IMG/VR virus record: IMGVR_UViG_3300043101_000125
Strand: one strand, 5' to 3'
Source: a virus
Length of the DNA: 64,000 bases
The notes under the pieces are model-generated. The model saw nothing but the letters and a program-made list of their open reading frames with translations. It did no database searches and was not told the DNA's origin. The translations under genes were made by a program, and so were the position numbers. This document shows positions 710 to 15,039 of this stretch, piece after piece; within the stretch, counting starts at the first letter, position 1; each line of letters starts with the position of its first letter.

Positions 710-961
710 TTAGCTCCTTTTGGATTTTAAAAATTCATTTGCTTCATATTCTGATGGAGATATTACGTCGACTGATTTGACAAGAGTGTCAAAATTCACT
801 ATAATATAATTATTTGGAAAAACCTCAGACCATATGTCTACGCATTTTTTGATAGTGTCAAGATCATTTTCTTCTCCTGAATAAAAGGTAAGTACAATAA
901 CATCACCTTTATTTACATTTATTTTGTTTGTTTTATATATCAACGTTTGCCCTCCATGCAT
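710..961 (-). CDS. Hypothetical protein (83 aa).
   Basis: ORF packed tightly between RNase H and the topoisomerase B C-terminal fragment. Confidence 0.4.
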   Translation of the reverse strand: MHGGQTLIYKTNKINVNKGDVIVLTFYSGEENDLDTIKKCVDIWSEVFPNNYIIVNFDTLVKSVDVISPSEYEANEFLKSKRS

Positions 962-1325
962 TTTCAGTAATGAACTGCTTACGTGGGGTTACTGATTCAC
1001 CCATAAGGCTAATAAAAGTATTTGCTACTTCAGCTACATCTCCCATAGTAATCTTTTTAAGAGTTCTAGTTTCTGGATTCATTACAGTTTCTGCCATTTC
1101 ATGGGCATCCATCTCACCTAGACCTTTCATTCGGCCTAGTTCAAAAGATTTTGTAGCTGATTTTCTGAATTCTGCAAGAGCTGCATCATCTTTTAAATAC
1201 TGAATTTTTGTACCCTGAGTAATTTTATAAAGTGGAGGCACTGCCGCATAAATATATCCTTTTTCAATTAATTCTGGCGCAAATTTCCAGATAAAAGTTA
1301 AGAATAAAATACGAATATGTGACAT
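933..1325 (-). CDS. Topoisomerase II B subunit, C-terminal fragment (T4 gp60-like).
   Basis: The ORF starts MSHIRILFLTF...GYIYAAVPPLYK...KGLGEMDAHEMAETVMNPETR...ITENA. This is the GyrB segment that directly follows DADVDG in intact GyrB. Confidence 0.75.
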   Translation of the reverse strand: MSHIRILFLTFIWKFAPELIEKGYIYAAVPPLYKITQGTKIQYLKDDAALAEFRKSATKSFELGRMKGLGEMDAHEMAETVMNPETRTLKKITMGDVAEVANTFISLMGESVTPRKQFITENAWRANVDI

Positions 1326-1556
1326 CTATTAGGACTGACTATCTTTTACTTTCTTAATAAGAAAGGAAACCATTTCCCCTTTTAACAGTCTTCGTTTCCT
1401 AAAAACTGAGTGCGTATCAATAGCACCGGTACTCCCCCGCCCAGAAGGCCTAGGGGATAGTCGATACAGGTTCAAATATTATCTTATAAATAATATAAGT
1501 TTCCCACGGGATTGAGTATATAACCTTTCCCCGTTAGCATTAAATTTCTACTAAAT

Positions 1557-3137
1557 TTAATACCCGCCTGATAAAGCGAAAAGTTTTTCATTGGCCCACA
1601 TTTGACCATCTACATCTGCATCAGCAGTAATAATAATTTTTCCATATCGTAATTTTGATTCATCAACAATTACTTTTCCATCTTTAATTTCCAATCCAAA
1701 AGCATCAATCATTGCATTGATCTCTTGGTTTCCAAGAGCCTTATGAAGATCAACTTTAAGTGTGTTAAGGATTTTACCTCTTACTGGCAATACTGCTTGA
1801 GTTCCTCTATCACGAGCTTCCTTTGTAGTGCCTGCAGCAGATTTTCCTTCTACAATAAAGACTTCACATTCAGAACGTTTTTTAGAACTTGCATCTGCCA
1901 AAGTTCCAGGTAATACAGTTCTCTTTTTAGCATCCTGTTTACGAACTGTCTCTTTTGCTTTTTTAGCTTTTTCTCTAGCCGCTCGTGCTAATAATGCTTT
2001 TTCAATAATTGCTTTTGCATCATTCGGATGTGAATCAAGCCAAATTTTAATCTCTTTAGAAGTTAATCTTTGAACCATTGTTCTTGCTTCACTACTGGAA
2101 AGGACTTCCTTTGTCTGACCAGAAAATACTGGATCTGGCATAATAAAAGAAAGAACTAAAACTAATCCTTCTTTTAGTTCATCGCCAGATATATTAGCAT
2201 CTTTCTCTTTAAGAAGCTTCTTCTCTCTAGCATACTCATTAATTGTCTGTGTGAGCGCAGTTCTAAAACCTGTAAGATGTGTTCCACCAGTATTCGGAAT
2301 TGAGTTTGTAAACAACTTATATGTATCAGAATAAGTTGTATTATAAACCATTGCCATTTTTACGCCAATTCTATCTTCACTACTTTCCGCATAAAAAGTA
2401 GAAGTTATTGTTTGTTTATTCTTATTTAAATCTTCAATATAATCAAGGATTCCATTCTTTGATACAATAATCTCTTCTGGTTTATCTTTATAAGTTAATT
2501 TAAAAGTTAACCCAGGAGAAAGATAAGCTAATTCTTGTAACTGATTTCTTAAAGAATCATAGGAAATATCAATTCCTTCTTTAAAAATCTCTGGATCTGG
2601 TCTAAACTGAATGGAAGTTCCATGATCATCTTTTCGCCAATCCTCAGTTTTGAATTTTACAAGTTGTCCCTTTTTAAAAGATGCTAAAGCAAGTTTTCCA
2701 TCTCTTGCTGAACTTACACTAAATAATTCAGAAAGAGCATTAGTCGCTTTTGCTCCAACACCATTCATTCCTCCAGATGTATTATATCCAGTTTTTCCAG
2801 AACTATCAAATTTTGCTCCTGTATGAAGCTTTGTGTAAATATTTACAAGTGTTTCAGATCCATCTTCTGCTTCTCCAAAAGGAACTCCTCTACCATTATC
2901 AGTAATAACAATAAATTCTCCTTTATCAAGATCACCCACTTGAACTTTACATTCAGTACAAAATCCATTCAAATATTCATCTACTGCATTTGAGATAATT
3001 TCAAGAGTAATATGTCTAACTCCTTCTGGACCAACTGAACCGATATACATTCCTGGTCTAAGTCGAATAGCTTCAATGCCTTCAAGAGTTTTAATATCCT
3101 CTACACCATAATTCATTTTAGTTTCTTTATCTGCCAT
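1557..3137 (-). CDS. Topoisomerase II B subunit, N-terminal ATPase + Toprim fragment (GyrB-like, T4 gp39-like).
   Basis: GHKL ATPase motifs and Toprim EVFIVEGKSAAG. The ORF ends ...IIITADADVDG followed by a 15-aa non-homologous tail. Confidence 0.85.
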   Translation of the reverse strand: MADKETKMNYGVEDIKTLEGIEAIRLRPGMYIGSVGPEGVRHITLEIISNAVDEYLNGFCTECKVQVGDLDKGEFIVITDNGRGVPFGEAEDGSETLVNIYTKLHTGAKFDSSGKTGYNTSGGMNGVGAKATNALSELFSVSSARDGKLALASFKKGQLVKFKTEDWRKDDHGTSIQFRPDPEIFKEGIDISYDSLRNQLQELAYLSPGLTFKLTYKDKPEEIIVSKNGILDYIEDLNKNKQTITSTFYAESSEDRIGVKMAMVYNTTYSDTYKLFTNSIPNTGGTHLTGFRTALTQTINEYAREKKLLKEKDANISGDELKEGLVLVLSFIMPDPVFSGQTKEVLSSSEARTMVQRLTSKEIKIWLDSHPNDAKAIIEKALLARAAREKAKKAKETVRKQDAKKRTVLPGTLADASSKKRSECEVFIVEGKSAAGTTKEARDRGTQAVLPVRGKILNTLKVDLHKALGNQEINAMIDAFGLEIKDGKVIVDESKLRYGKIIITADADVDGQMWANEKLFALSGGY

Positions 3138-3782: not shown

Positions 3783-5501
3783 TTACACCTTCTTTAAATA
3801 TTTTTTAGATGCAAATCCAGTATAAACTACTTTATTATATGTAAATTGCACATATAACCAAGGAGTTCCATTAGAATTAGAATAATAACCATAATTTTGA
3901 ACTGTAGTTCCTTTTGGAATTGTTACCATTATGGAGTTATTTGTTCCTGCTCCATTTCTAATATTCAAATCAGCTGTAGTTTGATAAGAACCAGCATAAC
4001 TACTATTTTTAGAATCAGCTCCATTCGTAGCAGTTTTTTTAGTTGTAGCTGATGTAGTAGTAGTTGTTGTAGTTTTGGTTGTATAAGAATAATAAGTTCC
4101 TGTTGTATTAGAAGTATATGCATATCCGCAAGATACTCCAGACCAAACAATTTTATACCATCCATTAGAAACACTAAGAACTTCAACTTTAGTTCCTTTA
4201 GAAATGGTTCCTACTACAAGGCTACTAGTATTTGCTTGCGCACGAATATTCATTTCAGTCTGCGCAATTGCAGTTCCAATGCCTTTTCCAACATATGAGT
4301 TATTTTCAACTGTAGTTGTTGCGGTTGTAGTGGTAGTAGTTGTTGTTGTAGCTTTAGATCCTTTAGTGACATTTGTTGCAGTGTGATGTTCATCATTAAG
4401 TAAAATATCACCTGGTAATAAATAAGCAGTTCCAGTTAAATATTTACTATCTGTTAATACCGTAAAGCCAGCTGCTTTATAAGCTTTTCTCATATCTCCA
4501 GTATAAGTTGCAGAGATGTTTTTAAGTGCAGAAATTCCTAATAAATATCCGACTGCTTTTGTATTTGCAATAACGCCGGCAGAGCAGTCTGCTTCACATT
4601 TAGTTGTAATTTTAGATGGATCATAATTTACTTTTTGAAGCTGTGTCCAATAAGTATATCTTTCATTTTGATCATATCCAATATTATTATTTAATGCGGC
4701 CGCGCATCCTAATTCCGCAAGTTTTTGACCTACATTAGCATCTTTTTCATATCTTAAAACACAATTCCAAGGTCTATTATACCATGAACGTAAATACCAT
4801 TCTTCTCCAGTTTGGTCACCTGCTGAGCCACCTTTATATTTATTATTTTCATCATGTCCACTATTGGAAATATAATGAGTTCCAGTTGAATTAATATATT
4901 TAGAATAATTTGTTGAAGTTGTTGTAGCCACTGTATTTTCCTCCTTCTTTGTTACATATGCATCATAATATTTCATTCCATAATTAGCTCTTGTATTTTG
5001 CATTGTAGTTCCTGTATCTGATGGACTTTCAAATTTTTTTAATACAATATCAGAAGCTTCTTTTACACTTGTTGCAGTTTTTAAAGTGTTATAAACTGTG
5101 CTGTAAGAAGCTTTTAATTCAGTTAAAAGCCACTCTAATTGAGTTTCTAAATCTGCAATAGATACTTTCTTACTTTTAACTAAATCATAAAGACCACCTT
5201 TTCTTCCTGCACTGGTCCATTGAGCTAATCCATAACCATATTGTTTACCTGGAAGCGGATTTAAAAATTCTGCTCTTGTAATTGTTCCATCATCAACCGC
5301 TGCTGTATATAATACATCTGTGCAATATGTTTTTCCGGCTTGTTTGAGCCTGGTTTCACACAAGTTTTCAAGATTATTTGATTTTAATCCGGATTCTGCA
5401 TATAGATTTCCCATTAAACCTGCGGCACCATACTCATTTAAACCTTTTGAAATAAGATAATTCCAAATTTGTTCTTCTGTCGTTGAGCCTTTTAAAGCCA
5501 T
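3783..5501 (-). CDS. Endolysin. It combines an N-terminal phage tail-lysozyme-like muramidase, a central Cys peptidase-like region and two SH3b cell-wall-binding domains.
   Basis: GAAGLMGNLYAESG motif, Thr-rich linkers, and SH3b-like segments (GWYKIVWSG..., WLYVQFTY...). Confidence 0.7.
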   Translation of the reverse strand: MALKGSTTEEQIWNYLISKGLNEYGAAGLMGNLYAESGLKSNNLENLCETRLKQAGKTYCTDVLYTAAVDDGTITRAEFLNPLPGKQYGYGLAQWTSAGRKGGLYDLVKSKKVSIADLETQLEWLLTELKASYSTVYNTLKTATSVKEASDIVLKKFESPSDTGTTMQNTRANYGMKYYDAYVTKKEENTVATTTSTNYSKYINSTGTHYISNSGHDENNKYKGGSAGDQTGEEWYLRSWYNRPWNCVLRYEKDANVGQKLAELGCAAALNNNIGYDQNERYTYWTQLQKVNYDPSKITTKCEADCSAGVIANTKAVGYLLGISALKNISATYTGDMRKAYKAAGFTVLTDSKYLTGTAYLLPGDILLNDEHHTATNVTKGSKATTTTTTTTTATTTVENNSYVGKGIGTAIAQTEMNIRAQANTSSLVVGTISKGTKVEVLSVSNGWYKIVWSGVSCGYAYTSNTTGTYYSYTTKTTTTTTTSATTKKTATNGADSKNSSYAGSYQTTADLNIRNGAGTNNSIMVTIPKGTTVQNYGYYSNSNGTPWLYVQFTYNKVVYTGFASKKYLKKV

Positions 5502-13356: not shown

Positions 13357-13557
13357 TCAATCTTTTTTCTCCCCTTTTAATTCATTATATTTCTTTTCAA
13401 GCTCCTTATATCTTTGAAGAAGTTTGGCATAAGCAAACTGCGCCTGATATGCGGCATCCTCAAAAGTACATCCACGCTCTTGACAAGCATATAGATCTTC
13501 TTCCCATCCTTCTTCCATTGCTTCTTCTGGATATGGGCATCCTCCACAAATACTCAT
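13357..13557 (-). CDS. Small Cys-rich protein.
   Basis: CGGCPYPEE...CQERGC. Confidence 0.4.
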   Translation of the reverse strand: MSICGGCPYPEEAMEEGWEEDLYACQERGCTFEDAAYQAQFAYAKLLQRYKELEKKYNELKGEKKD

Positions 13558-14027
13558 ACAAGCATCCTCTTAATTACTCTACTTACCATGCCCATATCAG
13601 CTTTACCTTTAAACTGAGGCATAATAGTTTTCATAACTACGCCGGTATTTTTCTTTTCAAGTGCAATATTTAATTCATAAGCAATGTCACGAACTTCTCT
13701 CTCAATCTCTGCTGGGTCATTTAATAGAGTTGGCGCAAACTCTTTAATGATTTCCATTTTCTGCTTATACATAGCCAAAGTTTCTGCTCTCTCTGCCGGA
13801 CAAGTATCGATCATTTCCTGCATAGTTTTCTGCTCTTTAAGCAAAACCTGATCAATTAAAGATTCAGAAATATTATCTTTACACTTCTGGTCAATAGCTG
13901 CTTTCTTAACTGCGGAAACCATACTGGATAAAGTTTCTTTTCTTATCTTATCTCCGTTTTTCATGCTCTGAATCATTTCTTTCTGAAGATTCTCTAAAGT
14001 CATCTTTTTTCCTCTTTTCTTATCCAA
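13554..14027 (-). CDS. GatB/YqeY domain protein.
   Basis: Recognisable GatB/YqeY pattern, including MPQFKGKADMGMVSRVIKRML near the C-terminus. Confidence 0.6.
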   Translation of the reverse strand: MDKKRGKKMTLENLQKEMIQSMKNGDKIRKETLSSMVSAVKKAAIDQKCKDNISESLIDQVLLKEQKTMQEMIDTCPAERAETLAMYKQKMEIIKEFAPTLLNDPAEIEREVRDIAYELNIALEKKNTGVVMKTIMPQFKGKADMGMVSRVIKRMLV

Positions 14028-14331: not shown

Positions 14332-15039
14332 TTAAGCCCATTTCCAAGTAAAATTTCCAGCTGTTTTTCTTTTTCCATTACAAACTCTCCCGATAGAAGT
14401 TGAACTAATTCCAGTCTGTCTTTCTGCTTCTTTAGCAGAGTCGTATATAATATTAGTTTCAATACAAAGAACTTTAGTTTTTGATCTTTTTTGTTTTTTA
14501 ATTAAAAATTCTTCTTCTCCAGTATAGTCTTTAAGATATTTCCAGACAAGAGCATTTCCTTCAGAATCCTTTCCTGCACTTTGTAATTCTCCTGTACAAC
14601 ATTTTTCAATATGTTCTGCTCCGGTATCTCTTTTTGCTGAATTTATACTTTCATATATTTTTTTAGTATTTAAACAAATTACAGCATGTCCTTGAGTTTT
14701 TGCATTAGCAATTTGAATTTTTTCTTTATGAGATTGAGTTAAATGATGATTATTTCCTCCCTCTCGTAAATTATATCCATTCTCGATACTATTATAATAT
14801 TGAATCCAATATCGTTCTCGTTCATTTAAGTCCGATTCATTAAGTCCACATTCTAAAATTTTGTGTTCAAAATTATCCCATCCGTATTTTTGAATAGCGT
14901 TATAGAAATGGGTACAAGTAGAATATTCACTTCCTTTTCCCCATCTTTTTTGTAAAGTTTGAATGGTTTGTCCAATATAAGCTTTACCATTAATTTTATT
15001 AATATGAGCATATATAATGCCTTTTCTATTTTTATTCAT
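14332..15039 (-). CDS. GIY-YIG homing endonuclease (Seg/I-TevI-like).
   Basis: GIIYAHINKINGKAYIGQT...R...E motif, plus C-terminal repeated DNA-binding modules. Confidence 0.75.
   Translation of the reverse strand: MNKNRKGIIYAHINKINGKAYIGQTIQTLQKRWGKGSEYSTCTHFYNAIQKYGWDNFEHKILECGLNESDLNERERYWIQYYNSIENGYNLREGGNNHHLTQSHKEKIQIANAKTQGHAVICLNTKKIYESINSAKRDTGAEHIEKCCTGELQSAGKDSEGNALVWKYLKDYTGEEEFLIKKQKRSKTKVLCIETNIIYDSAKEAERQTGISSTSIGRVCNGKRKTAGNFTWKWA

Follow-up and report, generated by a model that had tools for sequence, protein, structure and literature searches.

A group IA intron interrupts the Toprim-coding region of a gyrB gene in an uncultivated phage

Why is the gene for a GyrB/ParE-type topoisomerase subunit broken in two in the 64,000-nucleotide (nt) stretch of viral DNA analysed here (IMG/VR record IMGVR_UViG_3300043101_000125; hereafter the window), and could one intact protein still be made from it? 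A preliminary description of the locus had placed the break precisely at DADVDG|SHIR and had offered a small group I intron, the scar of a homing-endonuclease insertion or a translational bypass element as explanations. We find that the insert is a group I intron of the IA type, of the self-splicing kind, and that the pipeline-called 'DNA gyrase subunit B' genes of 526 and 130 amino acids (aa) are really one gene for a 640-aa protein. Judging from sequence comparison, this is very probably a functional intron that is removed in vivo.

A 282-nt insert splits the gyrB gene

The gene lies on the minus strand, a correction to the preliminary description, whose account of the two open reading frames (ORFs) otherwise holds. 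The upstream ORF (3137..1557, 526 aa) ends in ...GKIIITADADVDG (...ITADADVDG) followed by a 15-residue unrelated tail, QMWANEKLFALSGGY, and a stop codon; the downstream ORF (1325..933, 130 aa) starts with M-SHIRILFLTFIWKF (M-SHIRILFLTF). The distance from stop to ATG is 231 nt, in keeping with the gap of about 230 nt reported before, and the G+C content of the insert is indeed higher than that of the exons (37.6% versus 33-35%, with a peak of 45% at 1351-1450). The size of the insert, put earlier at about 276 nt, is 282 nt once the 15 tail codons and the ATG are counted, the ATG at 1325..1323 being intron sequence and not part of exon 2. The resulting layout is as follows.

1605..3137, minus strand: exon 1, 511 codons ending GAT GGT (...DADVDG); Pfam HATPase_c, DNA_gyraseB and Toprim; 96.3% nucleotide identity to the intron-less allele through its last base.
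1323..1604, minus strand: group I (IA-type) intron, ORF-less, 282 nt; starts CAAAUGUGGGCC, ends AAUAGAUG, with its terminal G at 1323; boundaries from the uninterrupted alleles, a weak full-length match to RF00028 and homologous introns.
933..1322, minus strand: exon 2, 129 codons plus stop, SHIRILFLTF...; remainder of Toprim, GyrB hook and GyrB C-terminal domain.

Joining 1605 to 1322 yields a 1923-nt frame of 640 aa, with the predicted ligated-exon junction ...GATGTAGATGGT joined to TCACATATTCG (in short form, GATGCAGATGTAGATGGT|TCACATATTCGTATT). In the conceptual product Pfam recognises HATPase_c, DNA_gyraseB, Toprim, the GyrB hook and the GyrB C-terminal domain, which together make a complete GyrB/ParE-type subunit.

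A protein search with this conceptual splice product retrieved P0001, a protein of 640 aa that is identical at 634 of 640 positions (99%) and aligns without a gap across ...DADVDGSHIRILF..., and hence the split at DADVDG|SHIR is not a product of chance. P0001 is encoded by four contigs (L003-L006) that are syntenic with the window (PhoH-like, lysozyme, 121-aa ORF, gyrB, small ORF, RNase H, gyrA-like, ligase). The comparison with intact orthologs that the preliminary description had called for could thus be made within these contigs, and the 282 nt are absent from all of them: DNA identity to the window is 96.3% up to the base ahead of the insert and 94.3% after it, the blastn match restarting 4 nt past the insert end, beyond the AGT/TCA codon. 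The break falls exactly at GATGG(A/T)|(AGT/TCA)CAT, and it is this alignment that sets the limits of the insert (1604..1323). The intron-bearing allele was found base for base on about ten contigs, the largest of 176 kb, and Logan runs of neighbouring SRR accession contained uninterrupted alleles. Near-identical phages differ in having or lacking the intron, a presence/absence polymorphism within one phage lineage.

Cultured-phage records contained no close relative of the gene by blastn, and the best tblastn match reached 44% identity. A search of viral contigs with the ligated-exon sequence matched only unrelated topoisomerase genes that share the motif, giant-virus bins included. A metagenome scan with an 18-mer of the 3' junction hit six contigs, none similar to the gene and all set aside as chance matches; a 16-mer of the 5' junction found two further chance matches and one contig with a related intron (L034, described below).

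The insert folds as a group I intron

Every core helix of a group I intron can be drawn in the insert with standard base pairs, so that the full P1-P10 core is present except for P9, which is partial in the window copy. From the 5' to the 3' end of the intron RNA, the elements are as follows.

1592..1608, minus strand: P1, exon UGGU plus intron c (1608..1604) with the guide gGCCA (1596..1592); 5/5 standard pairs, U1605.G1595 at the splice site.
1597..1601, minus strand: guide part of P10, AUGUG, pairing with exon-2 bases 2-6, CACAU (1321..1317), 5/5.
1579..1586, minus strand: 5' strand of P3 (AAACU + UUU), directly after P1; partner at 1367..1375 (AAA-ug-GGUUU), just ahead of P8; pseudoknot with P7.
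1565..1578, minus strand: P3.1-like hairpin between the P3 5' strand and J3/4, from the minimum-free-energy fold and covariation.
1537..1563, minus strand: P3.2-like hairpin of 11 base pairs (bp), from the minimum-free-energy fold; 14-140 nt in relatives, sequence varying and pairing kept.
1506..1534, minus strand: P4 (ACGGGG/UCCCGU), J4/5 AAA, P5 (3 bp) and J5/4 CAA, from fold and covariation.
1468..1505, minus strand: P6 (GGG/CCU) and P6a (7 bp, 7-nt loop), where relatives have a 700-1000 nt insert with a GIY-YIG endonuclease ORF.
1337..1462, minus strand: P7 domain, GACUAU (1462..1457) with AUAGUC (1342..1337), enclosing P7.1, GUA, P7.2, the P3 3' strand, P8 and J8/7.
1434..1456, minus strand: P7.1, within the P7 enclosure.
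1377..1429, minus strand: P7.2, branched, within the P7 enclosure.
1349..1365, minus strand: P8, covariation by eye among L008-L012.
1343..1348, minus strand: J8/7, UAAAAG, close to consensus; reads UAAAAGAUAGUC.
1323..1336, minus strand: 3' tail AGUCCUAAUAGAUG, with the 5' half of P9 alone, followed by the terminal G.

The minimum-free-energy fold of the insert by itself yields P3.1, P3.2, P4, P5, P6, P6a, P7.1 and P8. The hairpin quoted in the preliminary description is P7.1, and the splice-site rule it had invoked, a U before the insert and a G at its end, is borne out: the U.G pair of P1 at the 5' splice site, the intron-terminal G and P10 are all present in the window copy. P7.1 and P7.2, the IA-defining elements between P7 and the 3' strand of P3, are both there and both show compensatory changes in relatives, which puts the intron in subgroup IA. 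Two alternative pairings were set aside. A P3 5' strand beside J3/4, as in T4 td, has no complement there, the segment being the 3' strand of a local hairpin; and the conserved GGAAAC of the P7.2 loop was not paired with GUUUCC because covariation puts the GUUUCC core in P3.

Compensatory changes in relatives support the fold

Relatives of the insert were gathered from viral contigs with a 21-mer and then a 14-mer of the P6'/J6-7/P7 region. Requiring the P4, P4'/P6 and J8/7 motifs in addition left 63 distinct copies (hence at least 63 relatives), located in many different genes; the window itself was scanned for more copies of the family and none was found.

Across these 63 copies the two strands of P3 stack better on each other than on the strands of other copies (6.2 pairs with the own partner versus 4.1; 0 of 20000 permutations), the strands reading, for example, GAAUCC/GGAUUC, AACAUC/GAUGUU or AGAGAC/GUCUCU in relatives and AAACU/GGUUU plus UUU/AAA in the window. 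In alignment A1, five of the ten P3 pairs have changed on both sides. The exon-guide match of P1 behaves likewise family-wide (6.19 versus 5.17; 0 of 20000 permutations), and L027, a relative at the same site as the window intron, shows compensatory changes both in P1 (CGGU/GCCG) and in P10 (GUGCG/CGCAU). In P4, a coordinated switch from G-C to A-U divides the copies evenly (31 and 31), and in one more copy only one side has changed. Compensatory changes were seen in 3/3 pairs of P5, 4/4 of P7.1 and 7/7 of P7.2; P7 is invariant in 11/11 sequences and for that reason uninformative for covariation.

Given 11 ORF-less family copies, RNAalifold arrived independently at the first hairpin, P4, P5, P7, P7.1, P7.2 and P9, with compensatory changes in 23 of 40 pairs. 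When pairs were counted with P3 included as a pseudoknot, 91.3% of cells held standard pairs, compared with 75.4% after shuffling and 40-49% with partners slid by 1-3 columns, and 28 pairs had changed on both sides. Compensatory changes in relatives thus support P1, P3, P4, P5, P7.1, P7.2 and P9, and P8 by eye only. Taken together, the covariation, RNAalifold and pair-count tests establish a genuine group I fold, as one of the three original suggestions had it.

Points against, and the weak Rfam match

Several observations weigh against a working group I intron. The Rfam model RF00028 scores the insert at 16.6 bits (E = 0.086 in a 551-nt search), far from its gathering score of 50. The z-score of the fold is modest (-1.98), P5 has only 3 bp, P3 has only 5 + 3 pairs with A/C mismatches at its flanks, and the 3' half of P9 is missing from the window copy. 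Finally, an AUG stands exactly at the exon-2 border, which is compatible with separate translation of the downstream part. Since relatives often end in AUG or ACG, we regard this AUG as a trait of the intron's 3' end.

The Rfam score deserves a closer look, since taken alone the Rfam check suggested in the preliminary description would have misled. Despite the low score, RF00028 aligns over the full model and the consensus strings line up: GACUA...AAGAUAGUC, ACGGGGAAA and AAUCCCG of the window match the consensus, and ACGGGG-AAA, GACUA and AAAGAUAGUC, invariant in 11/11 sequences, align with the consensus GACUA ... AAGAUAUAGUC. The match came from a permissive scan and is sub-threshold; at the gathering threshold, Rfam reports only tRNAs in the whole window. 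Ten ORF-less relatives in nine loci also fall below the gathering score, whereas other, standard-looking introns in two of the nine-locus contigs pass it (L022, at 2225-2460 and 4864-5085; L118, at 13518-13821 and 14842-14969). In some of these phages, therefore, several introns of different subtypes coexist.

What sets the family (L002-L131; 1537-1586 in the window) apart is that it has no P2 between P1 and P3: the 5' strand of P3 follows straight after P1, and two hairpins stand between P3 and J3/4. As a P3.1 pairing is a listed optional element of group I introns (PMC3873408), we consider this layout a variant and not a new architecture. The lack of P2 and the hairpins after P3 probably explain the poor score. 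The sub-threshold score reflects the coverage of the model and does not show that the fold is absent.

Is the intron still spliced?

In the proposed pathway, gyrB would be transcribed as a single RNA in which the intron then folds. Exon UGGU would pair with the guide GCCA to form P1, P3 and P7 would make up the core pseudoknot and P4-P6 the scaffold. An external guanosine, held in P7, would attack after the U of GGU. The guide AUGUG would line up exon 2 through CACAU (P10), and the freed end of exon 1 would attack after the terminal G at 1323, giving GGU|UCA and the 640-aa subunit.

The best-surviving alternative, though an improbable one, is that the insert is a dead, non-splicing remnant, so that either the halves are translated separately (526 aa with the 15-aa tail, and 130 aa from the AUG at 1325) and assemble non-covalently as T4 gp39/gp60 do, or the gene is inactive. 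The partial P9 and the lost endonuclease ORF would fit such decay, the in-frame AUG exactly at the border and the two 'DNA gyrase subunit B' genes annotated by gene callers would fit separate translation, and T4-type phages are known to tolerate a split within the Toprim domain (bioRxiv 10.1101/2022.08.31.505936). However, no Shine-Dalgarno sequence stands ahead of the AUG at the exon-2 border, whereas GGAGG-type sites precede gyrB itself, RNase H, the lysin and the gyrA-like gene, which makes separate translation of the halves unlikely and supports continued splicing, and an AUG or ACG at the intron's 3' end is a family trait. Nor do the halves have the C-terminal and N-terminal assembly extensions (CTE/NTE) of T4-type split genes. 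The catalytic-core strings are all intact and identical to those of relatives; two relatives, L008 and L009, also lack P9, and the predicted splice of L009 restores a GIY-YIG motif. Moreover, both exons are under strong purifying selection relative to the uninterrupted allele (75 synonymous versus 6 non-synonymous codon differences overall, 21 versus 2 in exon 2), and the intron-bearing phage has repeatedly been assembled as a large genome. Each of these observations favours continued splicing over a dead remnant, and from them we infer that the window copy splices in vivo.

An insertion of another kind (a group II intron, an insertion sequence or miniature inverted-repeat transposable element, or an intein) is very improbable: nothing specific speaks for it beyond the fact that an insert splits the gene, the insert contains in-frame stops and so is not an intein, no other Rfam family scores above chance (terminal repeats and target duplications were not searched for), and the fold and the homologues are of group I type. 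Translational bypass, with take-off at the GGU Gly codon and landing downstream, would place the insert at the exact codon boundary of the 50-nt gap of T4-type gene 60 (TDADHDG | gap | LGSIYPSLL) and yet is excluded by the sequence: the gap is 282 nt and not 50, the take-off codon is followed not by a stop but by 15 more codons in frame, there is no GGN landing codon ahead of UCA (AUAGAUG|UCA), and the insert forms a ribozyme fold that is backed by covariation and has homologues among introns of unrelated genes.

Origin and mobility of the intron

Most relatives of the group I intron have 700-1000 extra nt in the P6a loop that encode a GIY-YIG endonuclease. ORFs were found in P6 of L034 (truncated), L064 and L087, with a Pfam GIY-YIG domain in L064. 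The most informative relative is L034 (IMG/VR contig 3300045988_117476), which interrupts another phage gyrB at the identical codon boundary (GAUGGU|...AUG|UCACAU) and whose guide sequence, CAAAUGUGGGCCA, is almost identical to that of the window. The ribozyme parts of the two introns are 89% identical (282 aligned nt) while the exons are 77-79% identical, a difference that fits lateral spread by homing. The L034 intron differs from the window copy in its length of 1090 nt: its P6a carries a GIY-YIG-family ORF, its P3.2 hairpin is long and its P9 is complete. By comparison, the window copy is missing the ORF, about 50 nt of the second hairpin and the 14 nt that make up the 3' half of P9: where L034 reads AGUGCCAAUAGUAAUAUUGGAAUAAAUG, the window is without 14 nt of it. 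A 6-bp P9 with a GAAA-type loop is found in L034 and most relatives and is broken only in the window and L008 within alignment A1. P9 is a peripheral element. L027 and L079 are further introns at the window's site.

The window copy encodes no homing endonuclease of its own, its P6a loop being 7 nt long and the insert having no ORF above 48 aa, and a crude motif scan of the coding (minus) strand of the window found no GIY-YIG ORF, the pattern matches on the plus strand resembling low-complexity chance. These comparisons indicate that the window intron descends from a mobile intron with a GIY-YIG homing endonuclease in P6, of which L034 is an example at the same site; having lost the ORF, the window copy would be unable to home alone. 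The earlier idea of a homing-endonuclease scar is thus right in a different sense from the one intended: same-site relatives carry the endonuclease ORF within the intron, and here it has been lost.

The exons around the site carry a possible trace of this history. Within 15 nt of it, the window and the uninterrupted allele differ by six substitutions, all synonymous (20% versus about 4% elsewhere); the change from GGA to GGT beside the site provides the splice-site U, and that from AGT to TCA provides P10. Such clustered synonymous changes look like co-conversion, selection for the exon-intron pairings, or both.

Family introns also occupy other positions. The introns of a sister lineage (L010/L011, L062, L064, L087, L101 and L131), which has a GIY-YIG ORF, lie 7 nt upstream, where they split the Val codon behind its GU (GAC GU|C GAU GG), and their guide is altered to match (GGCGU). 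In other phages, family introns occupy a second gyrB site, RMKG|LGEM in the KGLGEM motif (L042, L063, L080, L099, L104, L115, L120 and L129); the gyrB of the window is uninterrupted at the KGLGEM position. Three family introns (L008, L009 and L072), two with their own GIY-YIG ORF, interrupt a gene that ends in a GIY-YIG-like domain (...CYIGQAV|NIRERWRQH).

Neighbouring features of the window

The gene for the GyrA/ParC-type subunit begins near 232 on the minus strand and exits the window at its left edge (1-232), and the intron-less contigs share with the window the gene order gyrB, small ORF, RNase H, gyrA. Further away, a dense tRNA array occupies 27265-42517 on the minus strand, with 21 genes by ARAGORN and 24 by Rfam. 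The three Rfam-only matches lie at 27344-27466 (123 nt, far above plain tRNA size), 32696-32765 and 34296-34358; tRNA-Ile(tat) at 35326-35414 is 89 nt long.

Significance

The intron adds gyrB/parE to the phage genes colonised by group I introns. Since the default Rfam threshold misses it, the family is probably overlooked routinely in the annotation of phages and metagenomes. The same boundary within the metal-binding motif of Toprim serves the T4 bypass cassette as well as introns that have GIY-YIG endonucleases, which is consistent with a convergence of homing endonucleases on the most highly conserved DNA. The known mechanisms of these elements are unchanged by the finding. We tentatively suggest, as a possible and by no means favoured synthesis, a structural subclass of group IA introns missed by generic models (at least 63 viral copies, no P2, two hairpins after P3), a Toprim D-x-D-x-D-G boundary that would be a convergent hotspot reached independently by three devices (the window intron, the sister lineage 7 nt upstream and the T4 hop cassette), and a window copy that might be a naturally minimised (282 nt; no P2, P9 or ORF), active ribozyme.

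Comparison with known systems

A positional parallel is T4-type gene 60. In T4-type phages it reads ...ACA GAC GCA GAT CAC GAT GGA | UAG + 47 nt | UUA GGU UCU..., so that the 50-nt hop, as in Escherichia phage vB_Eco_F26 (L141, 500-700), occurs directly after the Gly of DADHDG, at the codon boundary of the window intron. The parallel drawn earlier with T4 genes 39 and 60 therefore stands for the hop (DADHDG|LGS) and fails for the 39/60 split itself, which lies upstream of the hop and is part of the MobA cassette (bioRxiv 10.1101/2022.08.31.505936). The bypass cassette of gene 60, together with MobA, resembles the window intron as a mobile element inserted into the Toprim motif of the large subunit of a phage topoisomerase II (bioRxiv 10.1101/2022.08.31.505936). 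Unlike the window, the T4 system uses ribosomal hopping together with a true 39/60 split with assembly extensions, and its free-standing endonuclease is of the HNH family; there is no sequence or structural similarity between the T4 cassette and the window insert. The T4-type take-off and landing pair (GGA UAG ... GGA UUA) has no match in the window, which shows none of the marks of a MobA cassette: the gap holds no ORF, the tail is a 15-aa read-through into the intron and the N-terminal 'extension' is a single Met. The conserved Toprim stretch is thus the site of three devices with unrelated mechanisms, the hop cassette and introns at two offsets.

Self-splicing introns of group IA (IA2-like) are familiar from phages, for example T4 td, nrdB and nrdD, SPO1, Twort and Herelleviridae phages of Enterococcus (see the review PMC3984707). 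Like them, the window intron interrupts a conserved motif of an essential gene of DNA metabolism and has a P1 with U.G, P3-P8, P4-P6 and P7, in the order P7 - P7.1 - GUA - P7.2 - GAAA - P3' - P8, and its relatives have a GIY-YIG endonuclease ORF in a peripheral loop. It differs from them in lacking P2, the ORF and P9, in being only 282 nt long and in having two hairpins of the P3.1/P3.2 type, and gyrB/parE is not among their classic target genes; a limited literature search found no paper on this particular gyrB site. Two stretches of the intron have matches elsewhere, nt 133-233 in Enterococcus phages EF1/EF5 (74%) and nt 130-196 in VRE9_3 (79%). Both matches adjoin ORFs that lie between gene pieces, the one in VRE9_3 being annotated as a homing endonuclease and the one in EF1 as a hypothetical protein. 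Weak blastn matches to the P7.1-P7.2 region were also seen in Prevotella Lak megaphages (H7-H21; positions at about 460 kb and 162 kb; 76-79% over 55-70 nt, unannotated), and these may be related introns.

Finally, crAss-like and Jug gut phages carry short, ORF-less group I introns of about 200 nt that fragment essential genes, and in Jug phages 37 of 76 predicted introns had splicing support from metatranscriptome reads (PMC12880540). The window intron, which comes from another phage lineage, resembles these in being short, ORF-less and located in an essential gene of an uncultivated phage. Uncultivated phages are already well known to carry short group I introns in essential genes, and the window intron is an ordinary case of them.

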